Below are positions 45,187-64,000 of a stretch of DNA of 64,000 nucleotides, in pieces. Location of the stretch: NCBI GenBank assembly GCA_965223705.1, contig OZ245015.1, positions 2,080,001 to 2,144,000 of the forward strand, given 5' to 3'. How positions within the stretch are numbered: the first letter of the stretch is position 1; the number at the start of each line of letters is the position of its first letter. This DNA comes from Myxococcota bacterium. Its GTDB lineage: Bacteria > Myxococcota_A > UBA9160 > UBA6930. The notes under the pieces are model-generated. The model was not told the DNA's origin. It ran no database searches and was given only the letters and a program-made list of their open reading frames with translations. The translations under genes and the position numbers were made by a program.

Positions 45187-46535
45187 CGCCCGACGCGTTC
45201 GTCGACCGTCTTCGGAAATTCGGCGATCGCAGCGCGCTCCTGTCGGATCGAGGAGAAGTTTCGTACGTCGAATTGCTGGCGGCGGTGGACCGCTTTGAGA
45301 GCGAGCTGTTGTCGCGCGGCGTGTCTCCCCGCGAGATCATCGCGATCGCCTCGGATTTTTCTCTCGAGGGAGTCGCGCTCCTACTCGCCGCGATGCGCTC
45401 GGGCGCCATCGCCCTGTTGCTCCCGACGACTTCGGCGCGGGAGCCCGTTCTGGCGAACGCGGTCTCCGCGCGTGGGATCTACGTCGAGATAGGTGACGGG
45501 GGTCTCCGTTGGCAGGGACTCGCCGCCGGAGACGCGCCGCCCGCGACCGTGACGGAATCTCTCGGGCCCGGCCGTGGCGGGTTCGCCATCTACACGTCGG
45601 GCTCTGAAGGATCGCCAAAAGCTGTGCTGCACGCCTCCTGGCGGTGGCTCTCGAAGTACGAACGTCGGGGCAAGCCGCTGCGTACGTTGGCGTTCCTGCT
45701 GTTCGATCACATCGCCGGCCTCGATACGCTCTTCTATACGCTCGGCGCGGGCGGCACACTCGTTCTCACCCGGGATCGCAGCCCGGACGGGGTGTGCGCG
45801 GCAATCGAGCGGTTCGGTGTCGAAGTGCTTCCGACGTCGCCGACGTTTTGCCGCCTGCTTTGCCTGGGGGACGCCCCCGAACGCTTTGACCTGTCGACCC
45901 TCCGAACCTTGGCGTACGGGTCCGAGCCCATGTCCGAGGCCACGCTCGCGGCACTGGCGGAGCGTCTGCCGGGCGTGGAGCTCGTGCAACGCTACGGCAC
46001 CTCGGAGCTCGGCAGTCCGGCGAGTCGATCGCGGAGCGGTAAGAGCACCTGGCTCTCGATTCGCCCCGACGACCTCGAGGTCGACGTCCGCGACGGACTG
46101 CTCTGGGTCCGTTCCGAGCGAGCGATGCTCGGTTACCTCAATGCGCCCCAACCGTTCGACGCCGACGGGTGGTACTGCACCGGGGATCGCGTCGAACGCG
46201 ATGGCGATTGGCTCCGCATCCTCGGGCGCGACTCGGACTGGATCAATGTCGGTGGCGAGAAGGTTTCGCCCCAGGAAGTCCGGGCCGTTCTCGAGGAGCT
46301 CCCCTATGTGCGATCGGCGCGCGTCGCTGGCTTGGCCCACGCGATTCTCGGTGAGGTGGTTCACGCCTCACTCGCGCTCACCGAGGACGCTCCGCGCGGA
46401 GCTGCACTGCGAAGAGCGGTTCGTGCACATTGCCGAGGGACGCTCGATCCGCACAAAGTGCCGGTCAAGATCGAGGCGGTGTCCGACGCGGAGACCCTCG
46501 GTGCGAAAGGTCGAAGGCTCGCTCCGAAGGGGTAG
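45183..46535 (+). CDS. AMP-binding acyl-CoA/acyl-ACP ligase
   Basis: YTSGSEGSPK, YGTSE, WYCTGD, GR...INVGGEKV, HKVP. Confidence 0.92.
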   Translation: MTPDAFVDRLRKFGDRSALLSDRGEVSYVELLAAVDRFESELLSRGVSPREIIAIASDFSLEGVALLLAAMRSGAIALLLPTTSAREPVLANAVSARGIYVEIGDGGLRWQGLAAGDAPPATVTESLGPGRGGFAIYTSGSEGSPKAVLHASWRWLSKYERRGKPLRTLAFLLFDHIAGLDTLFYTLGAGGTLVLTRDRSPDGVCAAIERFGVEVLPTSPTFCRLLCLGDAPERFDLSTLRTLAYGSEPMSEATLAALAERLPGVELVQRYGTSELGSPASRSRSGKSTWLSIRPDDLEVDVRDGLLWVRSERAMLGYLNAPQPFDADGWYCTGDRVERDGDWLRILGRDSDWINVGGEKVSPQEVRAVLEELPYVRSARVAGLAHAILGEVVHASLALTEDAPRGAALRRAVRAHCRGTLDPHKVPVKIEAVSDAETLGAKGRRLAPKG

Positions 46536-46548
46536 GCGTTCCTATCCG

Positions 46549-46562
46549 TTGACTCAGGTCAA
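46549..46562. promoter_or_regulatory. TTGAC-N4-GTCAA palindrome (CRP/FNR-family-like box)
   Basis: TTGACtcagGTCAA, 64 nt upstream of the ATG at 46627. Confidence 0.5.
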
Positions 46563-46626
46563 GTAGGGAGCCGGATCGGGCGATGTCATCGGGGACCCCG
46601 TGCGCGGGTAACCCGGGAAACGCCCC

Positions 46627-48843: not shown

Positions 48844-48866
48844 CCCGAAAAGCCTCCGGGTTTTTT
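48843..48866 (+). terminator. putative intrinsic terminator
   Basis: ACCCG...CGGGT stem running into a T6 tract right after the stop codon; short stem. Confidence 0.5.
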
Positions 48867-48945
48867 CACCCACTTCAAAAGTGGGGGTTTCTCGTACCTT
48901 GCGGAGGTGTCTGCGGCGCCTAACTTGCTCGGTCCCCGGAGAGAC

Positions 48946-49677
48946 ATGAGCGCCGCACCCGTCGCCAATCGATCGGACCGACTCCGCACCTCCGGCCGTC
49001 GGTCCCCTAAGCCGCGAACCGAGATCGTCGAAGCGACGCGCTTTCGTCGTGCCCGCGAACGCATGGTGCAGCGGCTGGCCGAGCGCGGCGTCGAAGACGC
49101 GCGCGTCCTCCGGGCGCTTCGCGACATCCCTCGCCACGAGCTCGTACCCGATGCTCTCCGAGAGCGTGCGTACGATGATTGCTCGTTGCCGATCGGCGGC
49201 GGCCAGACGATTTCCGCACCGTATGTCGTGGCATTGATGAGCGAGCGGCTCAAGCTCACGGGCTCCGAACACGTGCTCGAGATCGGCACCGGCTCCGCGT
49301 ATCAGTGCGCGGTATTGGCGCGCCTCGCCGGACGCGTCACGTCGCTCGAACGATTGCCGTCCCTCGCCAATGGCGCGCGTTCGGCACTCGATCGACTGGG
49401 GATCGACAACGCCGTCGTGTACCTGGGCGACGGCACGCGCGGTCGCCCGGCGGATGGCCCGTTCGACGCCATTGTCGTCACAGCAGCAGGACCGGAAGTG
49501 CCCGAGCCTCTGCTCGACCAACTCGCCGTCGGCGGACGCTTGATCGGTCCCTTCGGGCCGAGAGACGCACAGCAATTGGTCCACGTGGAGCGCCTGGCCA
49601 CCGGTCGACTGGCACAAACCACGGTCGCGTCGTGCCGCTTCGTCGATCTCGTGGGGGCCCACGGGTGGGCCCGCTAG
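48946..49677 (+). CDS. pcm: protein-L-isoaspartate O-methyltransferase
   Basis: LPIGGGQTISAPY, VLEIGTGSAY, PFDAIVVTAA, FVDLVG. Confidence 0.96.
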   Translation: MSAAPVANRSDRLRTSGRRSPKPRTEIVEATRFRRARERMVQRLAERGVEDARVLRALRDIPRHELVPDALRERAYDDCSLPIGGGQTISAPYVVALMSERLKLTGSEHVLEIGTGSAYQCAVLARLAGRVTSLERLPSLANGARSALDRLGIDNAVVYLGDGTRGRPADGPFDAIVVTAAGPEVPEPLLDQLAVGGRLIGPFGPRDAQQLVHVERLATGRLAQTTVASCRFVDLVGAHGWAR

Positions 49678-50360
49678 CCCGCCGCACCCTGGCCCTTTTC
49701 GCTGCGGCGGCACTCGGCTTGGCGGGTTGCACGACGCCACCACCCAAGCGCAAGCGCGCAGTGATGCAGCCTCCGCCATCACCCACCCTACACACGGTAA
49801 AGCGGGGAGAAACCGTGTGGCGGATCGCCGGTTACTACGGCGTGTCCTCCCAGTCGATTATCCGGGCGAACCGGATCGCCGATGTGAGGAAGCTCCTGCC
49901 GGGGCGCAATCTACTCATCCCAGGAGGCCGCAAGAAGCCACCGGTTGCGGCATTGCCGCCGGCGAATCCGCGCCCGCCGCGTGGGAATCGGCTGACGTTC
50001 GCATGGCCCGTTCGGGGCACGCTGACCTCCCACTACGGACGTCGTTGGGGGAGACACCACCAAGGCATCGATATCGGGGCGCGCTCGGGAACGAAGGTGG
50101 CGGCGGCGGAACGCGGGCGGGTCAAATACAGCGGAAGCGGTCTCGGAGCGTACGGGAACGTCGTCATCATCGAGCATCCGGGCGGGTTCGAAACCGTGTA
50201 CGCACACAACCGGCGCAATCGGGTGCGACGCGGTGACATCGTCCGCAAGGGTCAGGTCATTGCCGAGGTCGGCGCCACCGGGAACGCCACGGGTCCGCAC
50301 CTCCACTTCGAAATTCGCTCGAACAACAAAGCCCACAATCCCATGCGCTATCTGCCCTAG
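49665..50360 (+). CDS. NlpD-like lipoprotein (LysM + M23 peptidase)
   Basis: LAGC lipobox; HTVKRGETVWRIA; HQGID, YAHN, TGPHLHFE; follows pcm. Confidence 0.94.
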   Translation: MGPLARRTLALFAAAALGLAGCTTPPPKRKRAVMQPPPSPTLHTVKRGETVWRIAGYYGVSSQSIIRANRIADVRKLLPGRNLLIPGGRKKPPVAALPPANPRPPRGNRLTFAWPVRGTLTSHYGRRWGRHHQGIDIGARSGTKVAAAERGRVKYSGSGLGAYGNVVIIEHPGGFETVYAHNRRNRVRRGDIVRKGQVIAEVGATGNATGPHLHFEIRSNNKAHNPMRYLP

Positions 50361-50435
50361 CGCTCGAAAACGGCCCCGACCCACGGGGACTCGCGCTCTG
50401 GTATCCTGCCCGCGCTGCAACGCGGAAGGAAGCCC

Positions 50436-50957
50436 ATGGATCACGCCGAGCTCCGACAGTTCGTCCGGGACATCCCCGATTTCCCTGAGGCGGGGATTCT
50501 CTTTCGAGACATCACGCCGCTGCTCCTTGAGCCCAAGGCGTTCGCCTCGGCTTTGGATGCGATCGCGTCGCCGTTCGTCGATGCGAGCATCGACCGTGTG
50601 GTGGGGATCGAGTCTCGCGGGTTCATTTTCGGCGCGCCGATTGCGGAACGTCTCGGCGCGGGTTTTGGTCTGGTGCGAAAAGCCGGGAAGCTCCCCTACG
50701 AGACGCACCAGAAAGAGTACGACCTCGAGTACGGCACCGACACGATCGAGATGCATACCGACACCGTCGCGGCGGGCCAGCGCGTTCTCCTGGTCGACGA
50801 CGTAATTGCGACCGGGGGCACGGCGGCCGCGGCCGAGGCGCTGATCGGAGAGGCGGGCGGAACGGTGGTCGGCTGCACGTTTCTCGTGGAGCTCGACGCG
50901 CTCGGGGGTCGCCAGCGACTCGGCACGGCGCGCGTCCACAGCGTGATTCACTACTAG
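50436..50957 (+). CDS. apt: adenine phosphoribosyltransferase
   Basis: IPDFP.AGILFRDITPLL, ESRGF, RKAGKLP, LEYG, VDDVIATGGT. Confidence 0.98.
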   Translation: MDHAELRQFVRDIPDFPEAGILFRDITPLLLEPKAFASALDAIASPFVDASIDRVVGIESRGFIFGAPIAERLGAGFGLVRKAGKLPYETHQKEYDLEYGTDTIEMHTDTVAAGQRVLLVDDVIATGGTAAAAEALIGEAGGTVVGCTFLVELDALGGRQRLGTARVHSVIHY

Positions 50958-50976
50958 CCGAGGGCGAGGGAACAAT

Positions 50977-51783
50977 ATGCAGGTGCGAGATCGGGTAGCG
51001 GTCGTGACCGGCGGGGCGAGCGGGATCGGGCGCGCGCTGTGTTTGCGATTCGCGGCGGAAGGGGCGCGCGGCGTCGTGGTCGCCGACCGGAACGAAGCGG
51101 GTGCCAAGGATGTCGCCGCCGAGTGCGGCGGGCTCGCCGTCGGTTGCGATGTCGGAACGGAAAGCGGGATCGACGCCTTGGTCAAGGCCGCCGAGGCTCA
51201 GTTCGGATCGATCGATATTTTCTGTTCGAATGCCGGAATCGCTTCGGGGGGAGATCCTCTCGAGGAGCCCCTCGGCGAGTGGCAGCGGCAGTGGGACATC
51301 AACGTCATGGCCCACGTATTTGCTGTGCGAGCGGTTCTGCCGGGCATGCTCGAACGGGGAGAAGGCTACCTCGTACACACCGCCTCGATGGCCGGGATCC
51401 TGACGACCCACGGCAACGCCCACTACGCCGTGTCGAAGCACGCGGTCGTCGGGCTCGCCGAGTGGTTGGCCGTGACGTATCACGATCGCGGGATTCGCGT
51501 TTCGTGTCTCGCGCCGCTCGGGGTGCGCACGCCGATGCTGGGCGACCCCGACTCGCCCTGGGCGAAGCTCGCCGCGGGTGACATCAAGGAGCCCGAAGAC
51601 GTCGCCCGCATGGTTCTCGAAGCGATCGAAGAAGAACGCTTTCTCATCCTCACCGACGAGAAAGCGCAGGTCTGGATGGATCGGAAAGCGGAGAATCTCG
51701 AGCGGTGGCTCGCGGGGATGCGACGCATGCAGGCGCGCATCGACGAGATGAAGATCGAGTTCGCAGCGGGTCGCGACGACTGA
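50977..51783 (+). CDS. SDR family oxidoreductase
   Basis: TGGASGIG, SNAG, YAVSK. Confidence 0.93.
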   Translation: MQVRDRVAVVTGGASGIGRALCLRFAAEGARGVVVADRNEAGAKDVAAECGGLAVGCDVGTESGIDALVKAAEAQFGSIDIFCSNAGIASGGDPLEEPLGEWQRQWDINVMAHVFAVRAVLPGMLERGEGYLVHTASMAGILTTHGNAHYAVSKHAVVGLAEWLAVTYHDRGIRVSCLAPLGVRTPMLGDPDSPWAKLAAGDIKEPEDVARMVLEAIEEERFLILTDEKAQVWMDRKAENLERWLAGMRRMQARIDEMKIEFAAGRDD

Positions 51784-51792
51784 ACCGAGCCC

Positions 51793-52683
51793 TTACCGCG
51801 GGCGACGAGCGGGCACCGGCGAGTTGATGATCGCGACTCCCGTGAGGATCAGCGCGCCGCCGGCGAGCTCCATCGCTTGAAAGCGGTCTCCCAGGACGAT
51901 CACGGCCGAGAGAACCCCGAACAGCGGCACCAAGTACGCCGTCGATGACGCTCGTAGAGCGGAGCCCCGCCGCAAGATTTCCGACCACACGAGAAACGGA
52001 AGCGCCAGGCCCGGGATCGAGGCGAAGAGCAGCGGGCCGATCGCCCGACCCGGCACCGCGTAGGCGCCGAGTCCGTCTTGCCATGCGGCCAGCAAGGCGA
52101 GCGCCGCGAAAGACATGAAGAGCTGGATCGACACGAAGTAGGGCGCGTCCGGTCCCGAGAGACCTGTCCGCTTGACGATGATCGAGCCGGAAGCCCAGGT
52201 CGCAGCGGCGAGAAGCACGAAGACAACGCCCAAGGGCTGAGCGGCGTCACCTCCGGACGGCGCGGCGATGAGGGCCGCGCCGACAAAACCGAGGGCCAGC
52301 CCCGCAAGGCCGCGACGGCTCGGCTTCTCCCCGAGAAACGGTCGGGCGAGGAGCACCATGAAGAACGGCATCGTGTTGACGAGCACCGATGCGAGGCTCG
52401 CGGAGATGTACTGCAGGCCGAACGTGAAACACGCGCTCGAGATCGTAGTGAGGTTGAGCGAGACCCAGAAGATCGTCCGCCACTGCCGACCTCGGGGCGG
52501 AGACTGGCCGTTCAGTAGCGCATAGCCCAGCAGGACGAGCGCGCCGACCGCGTTGCGCATCGCCGAGAGCGTGAAGGGCTCCCAATCTCGCAGCGCGAGC
52601 TTCATCGCGACGAAATTCGATCCCCAGCAGACCGACACCAGGAGGATGAGGGCCCAAGTCGGTACGCGGGGGGCCTGACTCAC
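51793..52683 (-). CDS. DMT/EamA-family transporter
   Basis: About 10 TM helices; WGSNF, FLGEK, YLVPLFG. Confidence 0.92.
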   Translation of the reverse strand: MSQAPRVPTWALILLVSVCWGSNFVAMKLALRDWEPFTLSAMRNAVGALVLLGYALLNGQSPPRGRQWRTIFWVSLNLTTISSACFTFGLQYISASLASVLVNTMPFFMVLLARPFLGEKPSRRGLAGLALGFVGAALIAAPSGGDAAQPLGVVFVLLAAATWASGSIIVKRTGLSGPDAPYFVSIQLFMSFAALALLAAWQDGLGAYAVPGRAIGPLLFASIPGLALPFLVWSEILRRGSALRASSTAYLVPLFGVLSAVIVLGDRFQAMELAGGALILTGVAIINSPVPARRPR

Positions 52684-53507
52684 CGGACGTCGAAACGAAG
52701 CGCTCCGAGCGCGCCGAACTCCCCGACGTGTCGTCCCCGCTGCGCCGCCCGCGGCGGACCCAGCGAGCCACTCAAGAGGATCATTCCCGGCTCGATCGGG
52801 TAGCCCTCGCGGTGAATGTGGTTGAGCAGCCAGTGCACCCCTGCCCACAGCTCTTCGGGGTCCCGCAGCATGGCTTCGTGGACGCCTTCACCGTCGCGTG
52901 CGACGAGGATCTCGAGACCGGTCGTGAGCGAGTCGGGTTGTCGAGGTGGTCCGACGAGGTAGTGCGAAGCCAGCACGTTCGCCGCGATCAAGTCGCGTGG
53001 CTCGAGCGGATCGATCGAGGCGAGTGTGACGTCCGGAAGTTCGACGGCGGCTCGCACGGCGCGAATGTGAGCGCGTGTCGCCGATACGTCGGGCAACGGA
53101 GAACGAACGGCCGTTCCCACCTCGAAAGCGATCTCCGTCTCGAACCAAAGTCGGCGGAACGATGCGAGCGAAAGGCTCACGTCGCCTTCGAGACGACCCG
53201 ACGCCGGCAGCACGCCGGCGATGGGCGCCGACAGCCCGACCCCATCTTGGGCGGCTCGGGTGGTGAAGCCGGCTTTGTAGCCGCCCGGCGTGAAGCCGCC
53301 GAGTCGGCTGGGCACGAACTGCTTTTGTACGCGGTACGCGGCATCGAGATCGAGGCTCGGCACGAGACCCGATACCGACGGCAACGGACGCGCTGCTTCA
53401 GCGGCGGACAGCAGCGCCGCGACGGCGTCCGCCTCGGTGCTTCGCGGTTCGGCGCTCGCCGAAAGAGCGAGACAACACGTTGCGAACGCTGCGATCCAGG
53501 GTTTCAT
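52680..53507 (-). CDS. 2-keto-4-pentenoate hydratase-like (FAH superfamily) protein with N-terminal signal peptide
   Basis: AYRVQ, GYKAGFT, ETEIAF, AVELPD, ILLSGSL; MKPWIAAFATCCLALSASA. Confidence 0.85.
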   Translation of the reverse strand: MKPWIAAFATCCLALSASAEPRSTEADAVAALLSAAEAARPLPSVSGLVPSLDLDAAYRVQKQFVPSRLGGFTPGGYKAGFTTRAAQDGVGLSAPIAGVLPASGRLEGDVSLSLASFRRLWFETEIAFEVGTAVRSPLPDVSATRAHIRAVRAAVELPDVTLASIDPLEPRDLIAANVLASHYLVGPPRQPDSLTTGLEILVARDGEGVHEAMLRDPEELWAGVHWLLNHIHREGYPIEPGMILLSGSLGPPRAAQRGRHVGEFGALGALRFDVR

Positions 53508-54532
53508 GACAGCTCTCCACGGGCCAACCGAGTGCCCGCCACCATGTTGCGGAGCTTTTCGGCGGCCAGATATCGGGGAAGCGCAGAGAACCCGCAATCG
53601 GCGGTGACGCGAAGCCGAGCTTCGGGGATATGCGCCAGACAAGCGTCGATCCGACGAGCGACCTCCGAAGGCGGCTCGAGCCAGAAGTTCTTCACGTCGA
53701 TGATGCCGGCTGCGATGTCGTACCGTTTCGCGAGCTCACCCGCGAACTCGAGCTCGATCATTCCGCGGTTCGCGAACTCGAGCATCAGCTCTTCGCAATC
53801 GATCCCGCGCAAGAGATCGTCCATCCACACAAGGCGACGGTCGGCCATCGGGCGACCCGCGTTGTTGCCGAAACAGATATGGACGCAGCGGCGAGCAGGA
53901 AGTCCACCGAGGAGCGCGTCGAGGCGCGGCGCCGCTTCCTCGACGAGAAGTTCGGGCGCCAATCGGGTCAAGCCCGGCTCGTCCACTTGGATGTAGTCCG
54001 CGCCGGCGGCGATCAAGGCTTCGATCTCCGCGCGCAAGGCTGCACCGAGCTCGTCGAGCACCTGGATTCGCGAGCGGTCGCCCGGATCGATCGACTGCAT
54101 GAACGTAAACGGTCCCGGGAGCGCGATCTTCTTGGGCCGATCGGGCACCAGTCGAGCGAGTCGTTCGAATTCGGCGACGATGCCCAGGCCGTTCGGTGCG
54201 AGGACGGTTGATTCCGCGCGAAAGCTCGGCGCCATGTCGTAGCCGGCGATGCCCAGTCGGCGACTGGGAGCGACGCGCGACAGTCCGGCCAACCGGTCGA
54301 AGACTTCGTAGACGAAGCGTTGCCGGGAGAGCTCCCCGTCGGTGAGCACATCGACCCCGGCTTCGATCTGATCGGCGACCACGATCCGGGTGGCGTCTTC
54401 GACGAGCTCATTGGCGTCGTGCTCACCTATTTCACCGGATCGGACCTGACGCCGCATCGCGATGTACCAACCCGGTGCGGCGTAGGACCCCACGCCCAGG
54501 GTGGGGAGGTGCGGGAGCGCTTCCTCGTTCAT
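53504..54532 (-). CDS. cobalamin-independent methionine synthase II family protein (second paralog)
   Basis: VGSY, AGVDVLTDGE, IQVDEP, HICFGN, LEFA, TADCGF. Confidence 0.9.
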   Translation of the reverse strand: MNEEALPHLPTLGVGSYAAPGWYIAMRRQVRSGEIGEHDANELVEDATRIVVADQIEAGVDVLTDGELSRQRFVYEVFDRLAGLSRVAPSRRLGIAGYDMAPSFRAESTVLAPNGLGIVAEFERLARLVPDRPKKIALPGPFTFMQSIDPGDRSRIQVLDELGAALRAEIEALIAAGADYIQVDEPGLTRLAPELLVEEAAPRLDALLGGLPARRCVHICFGNNAGRPMADRRLVWMDDLLRGIDCEELMLEFANRGMIELEFAGELAKRYDIAAGIIDVKNFWLEPPSEVARRIDACLAHIPEARLRVTADCGFSALPRYLAAEKLRNMVAGTRLARGELS

Positions 54533-54594
54533 CGACAACAACCTCTACGCAAGCGAACTTCGTCCCGCGTGCGGGTCTGTATACTCACCCGCGA

Positions 54595-54671
54595 GCCCTC
54601 GTAGCTCAGTTGGATAGAGCGGCCGCCTCCTAAGCGGCAGGTCAGAGGTTCGAATCCTCTCGGGGGCGCCA
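54595..54671 (+). tRNA. tRNA-Arg(CCT)
   Basis: Acceptor stem GCCCTCG/CGGGGGC, D arm TAGCTCAGTTGGATAGAGC, anticodon arm GCCGC-CT-CCT-AA-GCGGC, GGTTCGAATCC, encoded CCA. Confidence 0.97.
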
Positions 54672-54687
54672 CAGGCCCGCGTTGCAC

Positions 54688-55917
54688 CTACACGTAGTGC
54701 GGTAGGACCTCTTTCCCGACTTTCTCCACCATCCGCTTCACTTCGTCAAAGGGAAGAAGCCCCTGATCGCCTTGCCAGATGAACCATTCGGGGTTCCCGG
54801 CCTCGATCAGTTTGTCCATGCTGCGGCGAATGTCGTCCGTGCTTCCCGCGAGCGCGAAATTCGCGTCGATCAACCGCTCGGGGGTCACCTCGCTCGGAGG
54901 CATGGGGGCCTCTCCGTATTTTCGGTTGTCTTCCTCGGTACGGAATGCTTCGGTGAAGCCGAAGTGGTGGAAGAAGTTCCGAAACCCGTAGCCGCACATG
55001 CCGCCCGAGAGAAGCTTCTTCGCTTCCTCGACGTCGTGCCCCGGGTAGATACCGCGCAGCACGCCGATGGATTCACCCAGTTCGAGATCGCGACCGATCG
55101 ACTTCGCCTCCTCGACGTGGGTTTCCGCGAAGAAGCGCACTTGCTCGAAGTCGGACACGAACAGCGTGGGAACGATGTTCTCCCGCGCGCACCAGCGCAC
55201 CGTCGCTTCGCTCATCGAGAAAGCCTGGAAGAGAGTCGGATGCGGCTTCTGATAGGGCTTCGGAACGATATCGATCGCGTGGATGTTGCCGTTTTCGTCG
55301 AGCTCGCCCGGAGAGCCGTGATGGCGCGTCCACTCGTTCGCCAACCACGGTGTCCCCGTCTCGTAGGGGAACGGGTACTCGTAGTGCTTGCCTTTGAACC
55401 GGAAGGGCTCGTCCTTCCAGGCGAGCTTCAGGATCTGGAACACTTCTTCAAAAGCTTCGCGATTCTGCTTATCGATCTCGCTCTGGTCGCTGACCGTCGC
55501 GCCGATATGAATCTTCTGGGCCATCTGATTGAGCCAGCGCGACTGGTAGCCGCGGGCAAATCCCACGTGCGTGCGGCCTTTTGTCAGCTGATCGAGCCAC
55601 GCGATCTCAAGCGCGAGTCGCAGCGGATTCCAACCGGGAAGGACGTACCCGATCGGACCGACCTTGAGTGTCGACGTTGCGTTGATGACGTGCTGGGTCA
55701 GGACCGGGAGCGACCCGATCTCCAGGCCTTCGGTGTGAAGGTGATGCTCGGGAAAGGCGACGCCGGTGAAGCCCAGGTCTTCCGCCATCCGCGAGATCTC
55801 GACCACTTGGTCGAACATTTGCTGCCACCGTTCGGTGTGGTGAGCGATCGGTCGCAGCTCTTTCCGCTCTTGCGGCGTCGCCGGAAGGGAGGGGAGGAAG
55901 AAGTACATAAACTTCAT
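54688..55917 (-). CDS. LLM-class flavin-dependent oxidoreductase
   Basis: FPEHH, PLRLA, LDQLTKGR, GFARGYQ, PKPYQKPHP. Confidence 0.93.
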   Translation of the reverse strand: MKFMYFFLPSLPATPQERKELRPIAHHTERWQQMFDQVVEISRMAEDLGFTGVAFPEHHLHTEGLEIGSLPVLTQHVINATSTLKVGPIGYVLPGWNPLRLALEIAWLDQLTKGRTHVGFARGYQSRWLNQMAQKIHIGATVSDQSEIDKQNREAFEEVFQILKLAWKDEPFRFKGKHYEYPFPYETGTPWLANEWTRHHGSPGELDENGNIHAIDIVPKPYQKPHPTLFQAFSMSEATVRWCARENIVPTLFVSDFEQVRFFAETHVEEAKSIGRDLELGESIGVLRGIYPGHDVEEAKKLLSGGMCGYGFRNFFHHFGFTEAFRTEEDNRKYGEAPMPPSEVTPERLIDANFALAGSTDDIRRSMDKLIEAGNPEWFIWQGDQGLLPFDEVKRMVEKVGKEVLPHYV

Positions 55918-55981
55918 GGGCGGGCTCCTTTCGCTGCGGTTGATTATACCCGGTTCTCACCGGAGGCCCGGATAACGGCCC

Positions 55982-57157
55982 TCACGTATCGCTTCGCAAA
56001 ACCATCGCGGACGTCGGCACGGCGTTTCCTGCCGCGACAAACGCGTGTTGGGCGCCCTCGACCTGGGACACCGCTTCCCCGCGGAGTTGGCGAACCGCTT
56101 CGAGGTTGTTCTGCATCCCGTGTAGATAGCCTTCGGACAAATTGCCGCCGCTCGTGTTCAGCGGGAGGTCGCCATCGGGCCAGCGCAGGCGTCCGCCGGC
56201 GATGAAGTCTTTGCTCTCCCCGCGCGCGCAAAAACCGTATTCCTCGAGCGCCATCAAAACAAGCGGCGTGAAGTGGTCGTACAAATAGAGGACGTCGATG
56301 TCTTTCCGGTCGATGCCCGAAGCTCCGAACACGCGATCGCCGATCACGGTCGCTTCGGTTTCCGGGCTCTCGACGTTCTTCACCACTTCGCGGTGATTGA
56401 AGGCGCCGCCGCCCATGCTGCCGGCGACGATGCGCACGGGTTTCGCGCGCAAGTCCCGGGCACGCTCGAGGCTCGTGATGATCATCGCGACGCCGCCGTC
56501 GGTTTCGAGGCAGCAATCGAGGAGTCTGAGCGGTGAGGAAATCATTCGAGACGACTGGTGATCGTCGAGCGTCATCGGTCGATTGAACATCATCGCAGCG
56601 GGGTTCCGGTTCGCGTGGCTGCGACACGTGACGGCGATCTCCCCGAAATGGAGGCTCTCGGTGCCGTAGAGATGCATGTGCCGACGCGCCGCCAGGGCCA
56701 CCATCTGCGCGGGAGAAAACAGGCCGTAGGGCGCGTGGTAGGCGGCGGGTCCGCGCGCGCCGCGGCTTCGCGACGCCTGGCCGAAACGCGGCGTCCCCCG
56801 ACCCGAGCGTTCGTTCATCGCCCGGAACGCTACGACGGTGTCGGCCTGGCCCGTGGCTACGGCCATCGCAGCGGCGAGAACGACTCCGACGGAAGCTCCG
56901 CCGCCGAACGGGATTTCGGCGAAGAAGCGAAGCCTCGGGATGCCTAAGTTCGTCGCGAGTGCCACCGGGTCGTTGTTGTCCCAGCTGAACTTCGCGATGC
57001 CATCGACATCGCGGGGCGTGAGTCCAGCGTCGGCAAGGGCGGCGAGAATGGCCTCGGAAGCGAGCTTGAGTTCGCTCCGTCCGGAATCCTTCGAAAATTC
57101 GGTGCTGCCGATTCCGGCGATCGCGCCGAGGTCTTTGTGCGCAGCGGTCGCCGTCAA
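55982..57157 (-). CDS. SCP2-thiolase-like lipid-transfer protein (Ltp2-like, possible acyl-CoA aldolase)
   Basis: AIAGIGSTEFSKDSGRSE, DCCLETDGG, LYDHFTP, NTSGGNLSEGYLHG; TTG start at 57157. Confidence 0.9.
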   Translation of the reverse strand: MTATAAHKDLGAIAGIGSTEFSKDSGRSELKLASEAILAALADAGLTPRDVDGIAKFSWDNNDPVALATNLGIPRLRFFAEIPFGGGASVGVVLAAAMAVATGQADTVVAFRAMNERSGRGTPRFGQASRSRGARGPAAYHAPYGLFSPAQMVALAARRHMHLYGTESLHFGEIAVTCRSHANRNPAAMMFNRPMTLDDHQSSRMISSPLRLLDCCLETDGGVAMIITSLERARDLRAKPVRIVAGSMGGGAFNHREVVKNVESPETEATVIGDRVFGASGIDRKDIDVLYLYDHFTPLVLMALEEYGFCARGESKDFIAGGRLRWPDGDLPLNTSGGNLSEGYLHGMQNNLEAVRQLRGEAVSQVEGAQHAFVAAGNAVPTSAMVLRSDT

Positions 57158-57158
57158 G

Positions 57159-58106
57159 CTAGGCCGCCGTTTCTCCCGGCAGGAACACGCACGTCGGACA
57201 ACCATCCCGCTCGAAGGCTTCTTCGGCGGCGTGCTGGTCGGCTTCGCATTGGTACTGGGGTTCCGATTCACGCTCGCCGCGGTTATCGCCCGAGCCTCCG
57301 CTTTCCCCGCTGCGGTCGTTGCCGGGGCGCATCACGCCGTCCTTCCAAGCGTCGTCGTCGGACCAGCGGAAGGGCAGCGTCAGGACCGAGCCCGGCGTTC
57401 TGAGGAGCGTGAACCCTTCGAGTGCCCGGAGGATCAACTCGCGCTGCAGCTCGGGTTCGTTGGGCTTGCCTGCGGTGTGGCCCAAGGGGTAGTCGACGAA
57501 CGCAGCCCGCGGCGGGTTGGCGGCGCGCGTGATCGAGAGGGCGCTCGTCAGGGAGAGCGTCGGGATGCCGCGGGATTCGATCTCTCGTGCAATCAGTCCG
57601 ACCGACTGATGGCAGACCGGTCAGACGGGAACGAGCAGGACCAGATCGACTTCGTCTTGTTCGATGCGGTCCGCGATCGCCGGCGCCAGTCGCGAGGTGA
57701 CCTGTCGGCTCGAGTAGATGCCGCCCATGAAGGCGTAGGCGTTCCGCGAGACTTCGCCGATCGCGCCTTCGCGCGCCAGGTTGCGAAGCGTTTCCAGAGG
57801 GAAGACGACGTTCGGATCCTCCCGAGCATCGGTCAGGTCATAGGCGAAGTGTGTGGCGCGGAGCGCGTCGCGCGGCGTGTCGCGATCAATCACCCGAAAG
57901 CTCAAATCGTCGCGATGGTGAAAGGCGATCTGACCTTCGACGTAGATACCGCCCGATCCGATCAGCCCGACGCGCGACTCCGAAAGTGGCTTGCGCACCG
58001 GCGCCCAGGGCGGCGGGGTCTCGCTGTGCACCCAGCGGTAGGTGGGGTAGCCCAGGCTGTCATACAAGACCCGGGTGCGTTCCAGATAGTCGACGGGAGC
58101 GCGCAT
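57159..58106 (-). CDS. GrdB/PrdB-family selenoprotein (glycine/D-proline reductase selenoprotein B-like), Sec at TGA 57621-57623
   Basis: KPLSESRVGLIGSGG, D..DPNVVFPL, FMG, VLLVPV-TGA-PVCHQSVGLIAREIESRGIPT, NPPRAAFVDYPLGH; 315 aa on readthrough; hairpin directly 3' of the TGA. Confidence 0.9.
57588..57614 (-). promoter_or_regulatory. bacterial SECIS-like hairpin
   Basis: mRNA sense TGCCATCAGTC-GGTCG-GACTGATTGCA (10 pairs, one mismatch); G-initiated loop begins after 17 nt downstream of the TGA. Confidence 0.75.
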
Positions 58107-58159
58107 TCCAGCAGTTTCGCACAACGCCGGCGCGAACACCGGCCGCTCGCGCGGGAGCG

Positions 58160-58957
58160 CTAGTGCGCGGCGGGGGGCGAGTCGGCAGCGCCCTCGCTGA
58201 ACTTCTCGTCTTCCGCGGCCTCGGGGTTGTCGTAGATCCGCATGAGCTCGATCTCGAACGCGACCATCGCGCCCGGGAGCACCTGGCCGGTGCGGCCCTG
58301 ATCGCCGTAGACCTGCTCTGACGGGCAAGCGAACTGCACGCGGCCACCGACCTGGACCCGGGGCAGGACCTCGTTCCAGCAAGGGAGGAAGTACTTCGTC
58401 TGCGCGAGGGTCGGCTCGTCCGCTTTGAAGGAGTTCACAAGCTCGGTGCCGTCACGCAACCAAGCGCGCGAGTGAAGTTGTAGCCATTGGTCTTCGGTGG
58501 GGTATCCGCCGTCCCCCGGCGTCATCGCGAGAATGACGATGCCCGTGTCATCGAGGTAGGACGCACCCTCCCGAGAGCCGAGTTCTGCCAAGTGCTTACT
58601 GCTCGCGGCTTTCTCGAGATCGATCCGTTCTTGCGCCCGCTCCTTGGCCATGGCCTGGAGACCCAGGGCGAGATTCTTCCGATCTTCTTCCTTGAGCAGG
58701 ACCTGGTTCGCGAGCTGGTCTTTCGCACCCTTTGCCAGCATCTCTGCCTCGGCCGGGGTGAAGTAGTAGTGCCGGAGGTCGGACACGATGACCCGACCCA
58801 AACCGTAGGCGAGCACTTCTTCGTGCGTCGGCTCGGGCGGAGTGGCGGCCTGTGTCGGCGCCGGCGCGGGTTTGGCCGGCTGGGGTCGAGACGTAGAGCA
58901 CGCCAGCACCAGGACCGAAGCCATCATCAATACCACTGTGAAAACGATGCGCGCCAT
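58160..58957 (-). CDS. FKBP-type peptidyl-prolyl isomerase lipoprotein (FkpA-like)
   Basis: VLAC lipobox; AYGLG, LRDGTE, CPSEQVYG, PGAMVAFEIEL. Confidence 0.88.
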   Translation of the reverse strand: MARIVFTVVLMMASVLVLACSTSRPQPAKPAPAPTQAATPPEPTHEEVLAYGLGRVIVSDLRHYYFTPAEAEMLAKGAKDQLANQVLLKEEDRKNLALGLQAMAKERAQERIDLEKAASSKHLAELGSREGASYLDDTGIVILAMTPGDGGYPTEDQWLQLHSRAWLRDGTELVNSFKADEPTLAQTKYFLPCWNEVLPRVQVGGRVQFACPSEQVYGDQGRTGQVLPGAMVAFEIELMRIYDNPEAAEDEKFSEGAADSPPAAH

Positions 58958-58985
58958 GCGGCCTCCCTAAGCTCGTCGAGGGTTC

Positions 58986-60167
58986 CTATCGGTCGGAATG
59001 CCCCGTCCCGTGAGCGTTCGTACGCGCCCGAAAAACCATGCCTTGGCCTCGCAACGTCGCCGTCGGGCGCGAAGCCGCGAGGAAGACAGCCTGCCCGCGG
59101 GAAAACTCCCTCGCCACCTCGTCGATGCGCAACTTGCCTTCGACGCAGAGCAGAATCTCGGGCCCACCATTCGGCTCGAGCGTCGCGCTCGACCGGCCGC
59201 CTAGCGACGTCCGTTCGAGGCGGAAGGCCTCGACCGGTGTCTCGTAGGCGGACCAACCCGCGGATGTCTCGAACTGACGGACGATCGGGTTTCCACCCGT
59301 ACCCCGGTCGAGCACTTCGAGTAGCAACTTGGGATGGACGGCCTTTTCGGTCAACCCGGCGCGCAAGACGTTGTCTGAGTTGGCCATGATCTCGACGCCC
59401 GTTCCGTCGAGATACGCGTGGATTTGGCCGGGTCCGAGAAACAACGCTTCTCCCTCGCGTAGATCGTGCCTCGCCAGAAGGAGCGGCGCGGCAATCCCCA
59501 CATCGGAGGGGTAGCGGTCCGCCAGGCGCGCGGCGAGGGCGTACGCGTCTCCTTGCTGCGCGAGTCTCCGACACGCTTTCGCCAACACGTCGGCGAATAC
59601 TCGACGCTCTTCCGGTGTTCGCGACAGCAGGTCCCCGAGAATCTCGGCCGGCTCCTCGTCCTCGGGAGCCCGTGGGAGCTCGTCGCGTAGGGGGTCCCAA
59701 AGCCGACGGCAGGCCGCGGGCGTGAGAAAGCCGCAGAGCGCCGAGAACCGCGAGAGCGCGACTAAAAGCTCAGGCTTGGCCCGAGGATCGGCGAACACGC
59801 GCTCACGGCCGCTGCTGGCCCGCTCATCCGCGTATCCCTGGGCGGCGCGTTCCTCCGGCGGATGCACCTGCAACGAGAGCGGCGCGGCGACCGCGAGAAC
59901 CTTGAGAAGAAACGGCAACTCTGACCCATAACTTGCTGTGATCTCGGGGCCGAGTGCGAATGTCGCATGATCCCGAATCCATGCGCGGAGAGGCTGCCAG
60001 GTTTCTCCGATAAGAATTCTCGAAGGGTCGCTTTCGTGAGCGCCAATCCAGAGTTCCGCCCACGGAGCCCCGTCTCGATTCGGCTGGCCGAGCAGGTCCG
60101 GAAGCACATCGCGCGAGCCCCACGCGTAGCGCTTCACAGGGTTTTCCAGGGCGTAGCACCAGTCCAC
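58986..60167 (-). CDS. manA: mannose-6-phosphate isomerase, class I
   Basis: YAWGS, AELWIGAH, LPFLLKVL, PLSLQVHP, KPEL, HAYLDG, EIMANSDNVLRAGLT. Confidence 0.96.
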   Translation of the reverse strand: MDWCYALENPVKRYAWGSRDVLPDLLGQPNRDGAPWAELWIGAHESDPSRILIGETWQPLRAWIRDHATFALGPEITASYGSELPFLLKVLAVAAPLSLQVHPPEERAAQGYADERASSGRERVFADPRAKPELLVALSRFSALCGFLTPAACRRLWDPLRDELPRAPEDEEPAEILGDLLSRTPEERRVFADVLAKACRRLAQQGDAYALAARLADRYPSDVGIAAPLLLARHDLREGEALFLGPGQIHAYLDGTGVEIMANSDNVLRAGLTEKAVHPKLLLEVLDRGTGGNPIVRQFETSAGWSAYETPVEAFRLERTSLGGRSSATLEPNGGPEILLCVEGKLRIDEVAREFSRGQAVFLAASRPTATLRGQGMVFRARTNAHGTGHSDR

Positions 60168-60248
60168 GGTCGAGCCGTTCCTCAAGCGCCGCACTTGGGG
60201 GGCCGAATCCCCCCGAGAGGGCGCCGTGTCGCGCGCTCGGAGAATGCC

Positions 60249-60974
60249 ATGCTTTCGAAGCTTTGCCGGATCGTTTGCCTCGCCACCTTGCTTCTCGCTG
60301 TCGGCGAAAGCCGAGCCCAGGTTTACCAGTGGCTCGACGGCGAGGGCACACCGCACTTTTCCGACCGCCCCGAGGACGTTCCGCCGCAGTATCGCGACCA
60401 ACTCGCGAATCCCAAGGATCCTTTCTCGGACGCTCCGCCGCTGAACGTCATGCCGGGCTTGAACGGTCCGAAAGTCCCGGAAGACGGCGCAAGCGCGGCG
60501 GCGCCCGTCGCCCGACCCCAACCAACCGACTTGGGCGAGCTGGTGAAAATGGGGTGGGGCCAAATGACGCCTTCGCAAATCGCGTTGGGGATCGCGGTCG
60601 TGATCTTTCTCGTCGCTCTCGTGTGCGCGTTCGCCGCAGCCCTTCTGATGGTGGCCTGTCGGATCTGTCGCGATGAGCCGCTGCCCTTCGGTCGCGGCAT
60701 GGGCATCTCGTTCGCGCAGCTACTGGGGGGTGGCGCCGTATTCGGCCTCTTCGCGTTGGCCCTTGGCGCCGGCGCGGCGAGCCAATCCGGGAGCTTTGTC
60801 GCTAACGTCTTCCTCAGTGCGGGTATTCTGCGCGGCATGCACAGCGAGTCGTTCGGCAAGGCTCTTGTCGTGAGCCTCATGTCCCTCGTGCTGAGCACCG
60901 TCGTCGGTTTCGCACTGGGTATCGTCGCCGTGTGCGCTGGAGTCGGAACCTCGCTGGTCGGATCCATCCCTTGA
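60249..60974 (+). CDS. DUF4124-domain protein fused to a multi-TM C-terminal region
   Basis: Signal peptide + VYQWLDGEGTPHFSDRP; about 4 hydrophobic helices in the C-terminal half. Confidence 0.8.
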   Translation: MLSKLCRIVCLATLLLAVGESRAQVYQWLDGEGTPHFSDRPEDVPPQYRDQLANPKDPFSDAPPLNVMPGLNGPKVPEDGASAAAPVARPQPTDLGELVKMGWGQMTPSQIALGIAVVIFLVALVCAFAAALLMVACRICRDEPLPFGRGMGISFAQLLGGGAVFGLFALALGAGAASQSGSFVANVFLSAGILRGMHSESFGKALVVSLMSLVLSTVVGFALGIVAVCAGVGTSLVGSIP

Positions 60975-61657
60975 AAGACCACGGTTGGTGGCCTTATCTG
61001 GCCCCGTACGGGCTGTTTCTCATCCTGGTCGAAATCGGTTCCCGTCTACCCGAGACCCTCGCCGGGGTGATGCTCGCGGTCAAGGTCGCCGTGCCAGGGG
61101 CGTTGTTCGTCTGGTTTTGGCGATCGGGCTCGTACCCCGAGTTGCGCGGGTACCGGCCGAGTGCCGCGGAGGCGGCCAGCGACGTCGGCTGGGGGATCGG
61201 CATCGCGGCGCTCTGGACGGTGCCCATTGTCATGGTGAGTGCGCTGCCAGGGCCCGAGCCGGACAGCGGCTTCGACGCCGGCGTGTTTGGATCGGACCGG
61301 GAAGTCTGGGCGTATCTCGTGCGCGGCATCGGGTTTGTGTTGGTGACGCCCTTCGTCGAGGAGCTCTTCGTCCGAAGCTTCTTGTTGCGGTTTGTCGATG
61401 TCTACAAGTCCCGCGGCGATTTCCGGGACGTTCCCATGGCCCGCTATACGCCGTGGAGTTTCTGGGTCACGGTCGCATGGTTCACGTTCAGCCACGTGCC
61501 CTGGGAATTCGGCGTCGCGTTTGCCGCGGGAATCGCTTTCAACCTACTGCTTTACCGGCGCGGTCACATCGGCGCGCCGATCCTTGCGCACATCGTCGCA
61601 AACGGCGCAATCTTTGCGGCGGTGATGGTGGGCGCGGTGCCCCGGGGATTTCTCTAG
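60971..61657 (+). CDS. CAAX prenyl protease-related (CPBP) intramembrane protease, PEP-CTERM-associated type
   Basis: PFVEELFVRSFL, FTFSH, AHIVAN; TTGA overlap. Confidence 0.88.
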   Translation: MKDHGWWPYLAPYGLFLILVEIGSRLPETLAGVMLAVKVAVPGALFVWFWRSGSYPELRGYRPSAAEAASDVGWGIGIAALWTVPIVMVSALPGPEPDSGFDAGVFGSDREVWAYLVRGIGFVLVTPFVEELFVRSFLLRFVDVYKSRGDFRDVPMARYTPWSFWVTVAWFTFSHVPWEFGVAFAAGIAFNLLLYRRGHIGAPILAHIVANGAIFAAVMVGAVPRGFL

Positions 61658-61995
61658 AGACCGCCGCGGTGACCGAGACGAACGCGCATGCAGACGTGGG
61701 TCAGCTCTTCGGTCGCCTTGCGCACGGCCTCGGGGCCACCCTCGTCGCACGCGGCGGAGAGTCGGAGAGCCGATCGCTCGAGAGGGGCGTAGCCCAGGGA
61801 GCGGGCTTCCGCTGAGAGCTTTTCGCTCAGGCGCTTGAGTTCGACCGTGCGCCCGGCGGTCTCCGCGTCCTGGCATTCGTCGATTCGCTCGCCGAGCTCG
61901 AGCACGAAGGCCTGCAGACGTTCTTCGTAGTCGGGGTGATCGGCGAGAGCCGAGGTGATCGCGGGTGCCGAGCGGGACGCCATGGCGCCATTCAT
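61654..61995 (-). CDS. Hpt-domain-like protein lacking the phospho-acceptor His
   Basis: FVLELGERIDE...LKRLSEKLSAEARSLGYAPLERSALRL fits the Hpt helical pattern, with E at the His position. Confidence 0.65.
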   Translation of the reverse strand: MNGAMASRSAPAITSALADHPDYEERLQAFVLELGERIDECQDAETAGRTVELKRLSEKLSAEARSLGYAPLERSALRLSAACDEGGPEAVRKATEELTHVCMRVRLGHRGGL

Positions 61996-62031
61996 CGGCC
62001 GTTTCGCTCGGCCGCTGAAGCGCTTGCGCGG

Positions 62032-63297
62032 TCAGATGGTGACGCGGTGGGGAGCGGCCAAGAGGGCGCGCGGGCGCCCGTTTACCGAGCGCACGACAAA
62101 ATCCTCGTCTCGGTGACCGGGATCGAGTCGACCGACCAAGCACAGCTTTCGCAGAAGGCGATCCTTGGCGGCGGCCACGCTCGGGTCCTGGCCCATGGGC
62201 TCCTCGCCGGCGCGTCGGAAAAAGATCTCCGCGCCGTCGCCCCGGAACCACAGGGCCACCGGGTCGGGACTGAGACGCCGCCGAGCGAGGAGGATCGCCG
62301 TCGCGAAATGCCTCCTCGCCCGCTTCGCGAACCGTTTCGGGTAGCGGATCCGGAAGAACTCGTCGTCCACATCGAGTTCGGGCGTGTCGATGGGATCACC
62401 CCGTCCGAGACGCGCCGAGAAGTCGGACGCGTGGAGCCCGTACACGACCTGGCCTTGCCACTCTCCCCACGCGACACCTCGGTAGCGACGGCCGTCGCGA
62501 CTCGATACCCGCAACACGTGAGCGGCGTCCCTCCGGGCCATACGGCGAATCTCTCGGCTAACGCCGACCCAGTGCCGGCGAGCCTCGAGGAATTCGCCCC
62601 GGCTGAACGCCCGGAGGAAATGCGCGCGATCGGTGATGCGCGCCCTCGCGAGGTAACGCTCGAACCGGGCCAGTTCTCGCCAGCGAGAACGGTCTCCGAT
62701 GCGCGCCCGGAGCTGGGCGCGTTCGAAGTCGGTGATCCAGAGCTGCCCGTCGGCGTCGAGGAGAATGTTGTTGGGTGCGAGGTCGCGCTGAAGGAGTCCG
62801 GCCTCGTACAGATCCCGGCAGAAACTCCCCAGGGCGCTGGCGAGATACGGTACGGGTTCCGCGGAGAGAAGCTCGGGGAGTTGGGCCAAGTCCCGCGCGC
62901 CGTCGAGGAAGGACACGAGGAGCCAGCAGGTGTCGAGTTGGCGGCCTTTGTAGAACTCGCCCGCCGCGATGATTTCGGGGGTCCGGATCCCTCGACGGGC
63001 GAGCTCCTCGGAGATGCGGAGCTCGCGATAGGCCTTCGAGCCGCGGACGCGCCGGGCGTAGCGGTCGGCTCCGGCATACCGGAACGTCTTGAGAACGTGG
63101 GTCGGCCGGGTTTTGTCTTGTAAGTCCAGGAAGTAAACCGACTTCTGTCGGGTGTACTTCACATTCTCGGCCCCGGCGTGGAGTTGTTTCCAGGCCGCCT
63201 CGATGACCTCGGCCGCAAGGCGCGGGTCTTGGCCGGCCCGCAACCACCAGCTCGCGTCGTGCCGACGCAAGGTCGGGCGGGGACGGAACACGCTCAT
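62032..63297 (-). CDS. lipopolysaccharide kinase (Kdo/WaaP/InaA) family protein
   Basis: SKAYRE, GIRTPE, QRDLAPNNILL, ITDFE. Confidence 0.85.
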   Translation of the reverse strand: MSVFRPRPTLRRHDASWWLRAGQDPRLAAEVIEAAWKQLHAGAENVKYTRQKSVYFLDLQDKTRPTHVLKTFRYAGADRYARRVRGSKAYRELRISEELARRGIRTPEIIAAGEFYKGRQLDTCWLLVSFLDGARDLAQLPELLSAEPVPYLASALGSFCRDLYEAGLLQRDLAPNNILLDADGQLWITDFERAQLRARIGDRSRWRELARFERYLARARITDRAHFLRAFSRGEFLEARRHWVGVSREIRRMARRDAAHVLRVSSRDGRRYRGVAWGEWQGQVVYGLHASDFSARLGRGDPIDTPELDVDDEFFRIRYPKRFAKRARRHFATAILLARRRLSPDPVALWFRGDGAEIFFRRAGEEPMGQDPSVAAAKDRLLRKLCLVGRLDPGHRDEDFVVRSVNGRPRALLAAPHRVTI

Positions 63298-63360
63298 GGC
63301 GAGAGGCTACCACGGACGCGGCGTCTTGACGGATTCCATGTCGAGGGCGAGGGTCGGTCC

Positions 63361-63642
63361 ATGGATTGCGCTTCGTGTGGTGCCTCGATCGAGCTCGCGG
63401 CGGGCGAACGAGTCGGCTTCCGGGATTCCTGCGACGCGTGCGGCACGGATCTCCACAGCTGCGTCCACTGTAGGCATCGCGACCCGGCCGCCTACAACGG
63501 TTGTCGGGAATCGTCGGCGGAGCGGGTCTCAGACCCCGAACGAGCGAATCGCTGCGACTACTTCTCCCCCGCGTCGGCAGGCGAGCTGCGACCGCAGACC
63601 GCGGCCGAAAACCCGCTCGATGCGTTGTTCAAAAAGGGATGA
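63361..63642 (+). CDS. small Cys-rich putative zinc-binding protein
   Basis: CASC, CDAC, CVHC, C, ANRCDYF; ends LDALFKKG. Confidence 0.8.
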   Translation: MDCASCGASIELAAGERVGFRDSCDACGTDLHSCVHCRHRDPAAYNGCRESSAERVSDPERANRCDYFSPASAGELRPQTAAENPLDALFKKG

Positions 63643-64000
63643 GTCGTCGAAGGAACGCCGAGTCTCCCGGGAAACACGGCTCGCGGCAGCCCCCGCCGGT
63701 CGACTACCGGGCCCGCGACACGTGGACCGTCTTCAAGATCATGGGCGAGTTCGTCGAGGGCTTCGAGACCCTGCGCCCGATCTGGCCCTCGGTCTCGATC
63801 TTTGGCAGCGCGCGGCTCCGCGAAAAGACCCGGCTCTACCGACAGACCCAGGACATCGCGCAGCGCCTTTGCGAGGCGGGTTTCTCTGTCATCACCGGCG
63901 GCGGCGGCGGTGCCATGGAGGCTGCGAACCGCGGCGCCGCCGAGGGAGGCGGTCGTTCGATCGGGCTGAACATCAAGCTTCCGTTCGAGCAAATTGCCAA
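63639..64000 (+). CDS. LOG-family (TIGR00730-type) Rossmann-fold protein, 3'-partial
   Basis: Read from the DNA (absent from the ORF track): VFKIMGEFVEGF, VSIFGSAR, VITGGGGGAMEAANRGA, IGLNIKLPFEQ. Confidence 0.94.
   Translation, partial: MSRRRNAESPGKHGSRQPPPVDYRARDTWTVFKIMGEFVEGFETLRPIWPSVSIFGSARLREKTRLYRQTQDIAQRLCEAGFSVITGGGGGAMEAANRGAAEGGGRSIGLNIKLPFEQIA

Follow-up and report, generated by a model that had tools for sequence, protein, structure and literature searches.

Among the closest described systems are the D-proline and glycine reductases of the Prd and Grd types. In the clostridial Prd system the pyruvoyl group of PrdA binds D-proline, the selenocysteine (Sec) of PrdB attacks the alpha-carbon and PrdC regenerates the enzyme (bioRxiv 2023.12.15.571967; PMC9908766); a U151C variant of PrdB is inactive on proline (bioRxiv 2023.12.15.571967). 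The betaine GrdI and the fluoroacetate FarE are described as not being pyruvoyl pro-proteins, the polar C-F bond is the predicted target of Sec attack, and FarB and GrdH still work with a partner subunit (PMC10838667); B proteins working without a Schiff base have a proposed precedent, by analogy, in GrdI and FarE. UxxCxxC is given as the GrdB-type motif (PMC13188914), and the available portions of the reviews name only PrdB and GrdB (PMC13188914, PMC9312934, PMC1794560).

Proteins called “PrdB” are also abundant in marine surveys. Zhang et al. 2005 (PMC1088965) reported 42 such selenoproteins from the Sargasso Sea, in a text that ascribes the D-proline reaction to the family, and Zhang & Gladyshev 2008 (PMC2398784) reported 235 in the GOS data; a later survey puts proline reductase at 6.4% of selenoprotein genes (PMC9402790). 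The word “prdA” occurs 0 times in the main text of PMC1088965 and of PMC2398784, and the available portions of both papers contain no discussion of a C-terminal tail, of subfamilies or of missing partners.

Results

The window, by which we mean the whole 64,000-nucleotide stretch of DNA analysed, carries two minus-strand open reading frames (57621..58382 and 57159..57485) that share a frame and are separated by a single TGA at 57623-57621, just as a sequence-only reading of this DNA had proposed. With the TGA read as U, positions 58106-57159 yield a product of 315 residues with U162 in the context LLVPV-U-PVCHQSVGLIAREIESRGIPT and the motif U-P-V-C-H, and it is confirmed that 57159-58106 is one gene and not two. 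The start was assigned to ATG 58106 and not to TTG 58382 because the stretch before ATG 58106 runs into an FKBP gene and alignments with homologs start at residues 1-4. The motif GCPTCVF, which the sequence-only reading took for the end of the protein, is present, although the true end is GCPTCVFLPGETAA, six residues further on. No signal peptide was seen in a by-eye reading of the protein sequence. The features of the gene, with homologous loci counted among the best 80 of 125 relatives, are:

57159..58106, minus strand: full gene for the PrdB-like selenoprotein, 315 aa; start ATG 58106, stop TAG 57161-57159
58032..58091, minus strand: N-terminal Tyr-rich segment, clade-specific; D6, T11, Y15, G19, Y23 and W25 invariant; outside the TIGR04483 match, which starts at residue 30
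57621..57623, minus strand: in-frame TGA, predicted Sec162; the codon is TGA at 78 and TGC at 2 of 80 homologous loci
57612..57614, minus strand: Cys165 of UxxC(H), invariant in alignments A1 and A2
57588..57614, minus strand: SECIS hairpin, 7-bp upper stem, GGUCG loop at 57603-57599, 17 nt between TGA and loop
57282..57326, minus strand: linker, residues 261-275; pLDDT under 50, length varying in alignment A2
57180..57287, minus strand: C-terminal module, D274-x-R276-x-x-R279...PQYQ...D290, helix 288-301, then CxxC
57189..57200, minus strand: C303-P-T-C306, CxxC in 73 of 78 Sec loci and in 0 of 29 Cys/Thr homologs

Assignment to the GrdB/PrdB superfamily of selenoproteins, as first made from the sequence, is upheld by Pfam GRDB (PF07355), which matches at 45.5 bits (gathering threshold 22, E 8.5e-12, profile positions 219-345 of 347), by the TGA standing at the Cys column and by the sel machinery of the host. 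The PrdB model TIGR04483 gives 156.3 bits over residues 30-249, short of its 300-bit cut-off. These two matches indicate that homology extends across the TGA. Models for GrdB/GrdF/GrdH score lower than their cut-offs throughout (TIGR01917, 56.7 against 602; TIGR01918, 63.8 against 65.45; NF040794, 66.3 against 800; NF040795, 60.6 against 775 bits), matching in the C-terminal part alone and not over the full-length architecture of ~430 aa, and the UxxCxxC of those proteins is absent, the sequence here being U-P-V-C-H-Q-S. Many homologs are labelled PrdB by JGI. The protein would work like a B-type selenol enzyme, but cut-offs, motif and partners all set it apart from PrdB and GrdB. Residues W254, D274, R276, R279, Q286 and D290 are 100% conserved among Sec loci, and many invariant aromatic and charged residues lie outside the UxxC motif in the alignment.

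AlphaFold2 modelled one chain with a mean pLDDT of 90.4 and a pTM of 0.92 (88.6 and 0.90 with the Sec-clade alignment). In the model the UxxC begins a helix (163-178) that follows a core strand, and the module at 281-310 is predicted with pLDDT 91-95. No clear fold match was returned by Foldseek (best E 1e-3, TM 0.28) or by VIA-align (best Z 8.1, generic alpha/beta folds), and sequence searches of the PDB gave no significant match and no solved relative. A homodimer prediction with the natural Cys homolog P0007 scored 0.00, which bears neither way, and an Atlas search with P0007 returned GRDB-labelled clusters only. Longer fused forms were absent among 8000 candidates, which is weak evidence as one 805-aa fusion arose from another search. 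PrdB-like domains were also seen joined to AMP-binding enzymes (two), HTH_3, an alpha/beta hydrolase or a kinase (P0137, P0143, P0177, P0114, P0239), either as real fusions or as gene-calling run-ons.

The TGA almost certainly encodes selenocysteine, judging from conservation, hairpin and host machinery together. Besides the 78 TGA loci and two TGC loci found in the GTDB genome scan (best 80 of 125 relatives analysed), 29 full-length non-Sec homologs have Cys (25) or Thr (4) at the Sec column. The four TxxC proteins are P0003, P0009, P0011 and P0012; three of them cluster on the tree and P0003 joins a Sec form. In one paralog the Cys165 column holds Asp, and together with the Thr homologs this indicates that the wider family does not keep either residue throughout. 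Among the best 120 protein matches 89 stop directly before the Sec codon, as gene callers truncate at UGA, 29 are full length and the remaining two comprise one Trp read-through and one divergent end.

All four sel genes sought in the host genome, which is 95% complete in 2 contigs, were found: tRNA-Sec (selC) at 78 bits against a cut-off of 47, and selA, selB and selD each over cut-off in profile searches. Among 50 carrier genomes, hand-picked from the carriers of the best 80 loci, selA was found in 48; counting just the 48 genomes that have TGA, it was found in 46. The TGA itself recurs in sequencing data, where it had been proposed that it be confirmed: a contig from run X1 (possibly the source sample) spans the region with zero differences, as does a 213-nt contig from run X4 (another sample of the same study) over 57531-57743, and neither contig has any letter other than TGA at the Sec codon. 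ARAGORN called a tRNA-like element with a TTCA loop at C1 4419161-4419253 (minus strand), which was considered as a second UGA reader and set aside as probably a false call, there being no Rfam match.

A hairpin with a G-initiated loop had been noted at 57588-57614 from the sequence, and it is indeed there. Its folding z-scores of -2.6 (33 nt), -2.15 (49 nt) and -0.09 (64 nt) are modest alone, an Rfam search over the SECIS element matched no family, and about 10% of TGA triplets genome-wide (9726/92967) pass a loose hairpin test; a crude genome-wide scan for TGA plus hairpin, tried as a selenoproteome survey, was dropped as swamped by this background. The evidential strength of the hairpin comes instead from codon covariation that maintains the stem pairing, counted over 59 distinct 36-mers from related sequences that are not independent events. 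The paired Gln and Leu codons occur as CAG-CTG (45), CAA-TTG (11) and CAG-TTG (3), with CAA-CTG at 0. At the His/Ile-Val pair CAT-AT is replaced by CAC-GT in four sequences, and this pair is broken in 7 of the 59. The Gly codon of the hairpin is biased to GGA/GGG, with GGA in 47 and GGC in 0 of the 36-mers, as compared to 163 GGA and 844 GGC among the 1546 Gly codons that these genes have outside the hairpin.

The C-terminal CxxC is a further conserved trait. Five of the 78 Sec loci (best 80 of 125 relatives) depart from it, with no such motif in L035, L056 and L062, one Cys in L053 and CxxxC in L055, a Thioalkalivibrio relative; the tail of L076 reads CETC. Neither TGC locus has the CxxC, nor does any of the 29 full-length Cys/Thr proteins, which were collected by a different route from the Sec loci. 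C303 and C306 are conserved at 96% and 95% while flanking residues drop to 1-30%, and the pair is kept, with 14 spacer variants, across four named phyla and the host, which supports selection on the C-terminal CxxC as read from the alignment. On a quick tree of 89 rows, with 41 of 79 Sec genes and near-duplicates removed by hand, the tail-bearing forms make one clade (SH-aLRT 94), and the tail was probably gained once. A single origin means that the association of the tail with Sec is not independent evidence, and the Sec forms without a tail (L035, L056, L062) indicate that it is not essential. A distant CxxC subfamily ends in a C-terminal CxC of its own (P0150, P0154, P0157, P0159, P0242), a possible parallel to the CPTC tail.

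The sequence-only reading also held that the enzyme stands alone, its usual partners being missing from the window, and the wider searches agree. PF09338 (PrdA/GrdE) and PF04723 (GrdA) have 0 matches each in the 95% complete host genome, and PF09338 has none in 41 relatives or in 201 genomes of the phylum (host included in both). As the built-in controls were silent, PF09338 was searched in the 50 carrier genomes as a positive control; it matched in three of them (best E 1e-140) but not in the other 47, and GrdA was confined to those three. The four PF09338 genes of those 3 carriers adjoin a separate full-length GrdB, with UxxCxxC in three loci (L129, L130, L132) and the fourth cut by the locus end, which is to say that these carriers own Grd systems. 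The genomes concerned (L129-L132 in G058, G072 and G074) are two gammaproteobacterial MAGs and an Entotheonella, with the GrdE-family gene beside the full-length GrdB and GrdA in the genome. PrdC in the host reached at best 35.7 bits against 490, a cut-off that no control exceeded either, and proline racemase (PF05544) gave no match in the host with a positive control. Cytochrome c oxidase subunit I is present, and by its gene content the host is aerobic. From these genome searches we consider it very probable that the enzyme is independent of PrdA, GrdE and GrdA.

A clade HMM found five B-type genes in the host, each with TGA at the same column, and no PrdA. The four besides the gene described above are:

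C1 150601: paralog, motif UPLDHQ
C1 2804206: paralog, motif L-UPVCHQT
C1 3212826: paralog, motif UPDCCR
C1 2849609: paralog, motif UPFCTR, about 408 aa

The loci of these four further orphan PrdB-like genes (L097-L100) carry the motifs UxxD and UxxC. In four of the five paralogs a GGUCG loop tops a 7-bp hairpin and the fifth folds more weakly; the three paralogs scored against NCBIfam (C1 150601 left out) were all under cut-off. PF07355 occurs in 27 of 41 related genomes, often in several copies. Five divergent paralogs with differing motifs suggest substrate-specific enzymes.

Neighbours of the gene include:

58160..58957, minus strand: FKBP-type PPIase gene, upstream; no tblastn hit in 108 related loci
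55982..57157, minus strand: thiolase-like (lipid-transfer, NF005892) gene, 489 bits against 469; begins directly past the stop codon
54688..55917, minus strand: luciferase-like (LLM) gene, the “oxygenase”; no tblastn hit in 108 related loci

Of four window neighbours compared with the 108 loci, the thiolase-like gene alone recurs, adjacent in the same-genus genome G001 and distant (38%) in L006; the LLM, FKBP and MetE-like genes do not. The neighbourhoods of the best 80 (of 125) loci are lineage-specific, with no conserved or co-located partner. The oxygenases first described in the neighbourhood come down to one LLM gene among 20 ORFs in 45183-63998, a matter of local gene order only, and a functional link to oxygenase, thiolase or FKBP was rejected since these neighbours are not conserved. 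A tRNA-Arg(CCT) lies between the LLM and MetE-like genes (window 54595-54669, plus strand). In L011-L068 (Ca. Multivorans and kin, Acidobacteria) the gene sits between carboxylesterase and myo-inositol oxygenase genes, a synteny at genus level only.

The novelty implied by the sequence-only reading does not stand, as the same clade with its CPTC tail is already in the 2008 GOS supplement. Its file 3 (PMC2398784) holds UPVCHQSVGL 17 times, labelled “proline reductase”; JCVI_READ_132735 includes the tail (PQYQ...CPTCVF), and the other four paralog-type motifs are there as well (UPFCTR 38, UPLDHQ 6, UPDCCR 1 and PLUPVCHQ present). By PF07355 homology, UxxC and clade motifs the protein belongs to the marine “proline reductase PrdB” survey family, a membership judged on exact motifs and the text and not by aligning deposited sequences. 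The clostridial PrdB type is presumably marked by the motif UGTCHR. Exact matches to UGTCHR and UGTCTRC number 0 in four supplement files (PMC1088965, PMC2398784), which hints that the marine “PrdB” set consists mostly of orphan subfamilies.

Discussion

Family and tail sequence are thus already catalogued, under a misleading name: “D-proline reductase PrdB” wrongly implies Stickland metabolism in aerobes without PrdA. Our literature search, with subscription journals mostly outside it, found no study of the family as PrdA-independent or of its tail. What is added here is the controlled absence of the partners, the tail as a clade trait of probably single origin and the panel of five paralogs. 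This is an abundant marine selenoprotein family, and five paralogs with differing active-site motifs make a ready panel in one genome.

The reading that we tentatively prefer, without regarding it as assured, is that of a selenoenzyme of the PrdB/GrdB superfamily, located in the cytoplasm and independent of PrdA, which would reduce a small molecule and recycle itself. As there is no PrdA, the substrate would have to be electrophilic already, so that the Sec162 selenolate might attack a pre-polarised bond with no need for a pyruvoyl Schiff base; candidate bonds are S-O, N-O, O-O or S-S, or an onium- or halide-bearing carbon. Cys165 would then resolve the adduct to a selenenylsulfide, and the tethered C303/C306 could re-reduce this and be reset by a general cell reductant, in place of PrdC or GrdA. 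A redox cycle at the UxxC is likely. Natural Cys forms are common (25 of the 29 non-Sec homologs) as against the inactive PrdB U151C, which points to chemistry that a thiol could perform, and the conserved core loops of the B protein (the TIGR04483 match at 30-249) favour a reductase. Counting against a reductase, the lack of conserved neighbours and of a solved relative leaves no clue to the substrate. We would go no further than to call the tail a conceivable relay, the balance tipping slightly against it: in the model it sits behind a flexible linker, as a relay might, but it is also confidently ordered (pLDDT 92 at 301-310) and not floppy.

Alternatively, U162, C165, C303 and C306 might jointly bind Zn, Hg or As in a redox-gated or detoxifying site. 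Two Cys/Sec pairs, an ordered tail packed on the core of the model and spacers free to vary in 14 ways would suit such a binder, but it seems unlikely to us given that tail-less homologs retain the same core and conserved pocket residues and that no metal-resistance genes are annotated among recurring neighbours. A general antioxidant role, as thiol-disulfide oxidoreductase or peroxidase with the tail as structural disulfide, seems rather unlikely to us: the modelled structure is not the small fold of the thioredoxin type, and invariant aromatic and charged residues with five divergent paralogs suggest specific ligands, even if the aerobic host has other redox selenoproteins (three UGSC genes), Cys and TxxC variants exist and UxxC is given as a redox motif in PMC1088965. 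Every characterised B protein described in the sources above has a partner, and unlinked genes escape neighbourhood analysis, so a catalytic subunit with an unrecognised, non-PF09338 partner encoded elsewhere in the genome deserves mention; no partner is co-located in the best 80 (of 125) loci and, terminal extensions included, the single chain is modelled with confidence (pTM 0.90-0.92), which makes this quite improbable.

The idea that this is a genuine subunit of D-proline or glycine reductase, with its PrdA or GrdE overlooked, is largely refuted, and we would assign it a very small chance. The best NCBIfam match is PrdB, JGI names many homologs PrdB and the genome is 95% and not 100% complete, but all model scores are under cut-off, the host has no racemase or PrdC, and PF09338 is absent from 47 of 50 carriers and from 41 and 201 kin in a search that detects the family at E 1e-140 elsewhere. 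The chance that translation truly stops at the TGA, or that the TGA is an error, in a split gene or pseudogene, is next to negligible: read-through has no protein-level evidence and selA is unmatched in 2 of 48 TGA-carrying genomes, against which stand 78 loci with TGA at the Cys column (best 80 of 125) and an intact, conserved downstream half, the SECIS covariation, the full sel machinery and the concordant contigs.

Returning to the self-recycling reductase that we tentatively prefer, a bolder generalization may be voiced, with the chances considerably against it. The ocean “PrdB” family, one of the most abundant among marine selenoproteins, might be a superfamily of selenoenzymes rather than proline reductase, cleaving C-N+, C-S+ or C-halogen bonds of small molecules (betaines, sulfonium compounds, haloacids) with no need for a pyruvoyl group. 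The hosts would be aerobic bacteria from the sea, from sponges and from soil, every subfamily (five here) would have a substrate of its own, and the present clade would recycle itself via its C-terminal dithiol.

Comparison with known systems

The UGSC family (PF24696, NF041046) is alike in comprising stand-alone marine UxxC selenoproteins with no assigned substrate, but its members are much shorter than the PrdB-like protein described here. UGSC models hit B proteins weakly, and a direct profile comparison of UGSC with the PrdB-like clade gave a probability of 0.9%, short of significance. The host carries three UGSC genes with a single TGA apiece, at C1 1758334, 322437 and 2906504 (L134-L136). 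GrdB/GrdF/GrdH, including the fluoroacetate protein FarB, share the PF07355 match and Sec in the same column, whereas our protein is without their N-terminal ~220 profile positions, UxxCxxC, GrdA and GrdE. The D-proline reductase PrdB (TIGR04483; Clostridioides difficile) is homologous over residues 30-249 and has the same short B-protein architecture and a UxxC followed by His. In contrast to PrdB, the protein described here occurs in an aerobic host without PrdA, PrdC or racemase, and it bears a Tyr-rich N-terminus and ~65 additional C-terminal residues with a CxxC.
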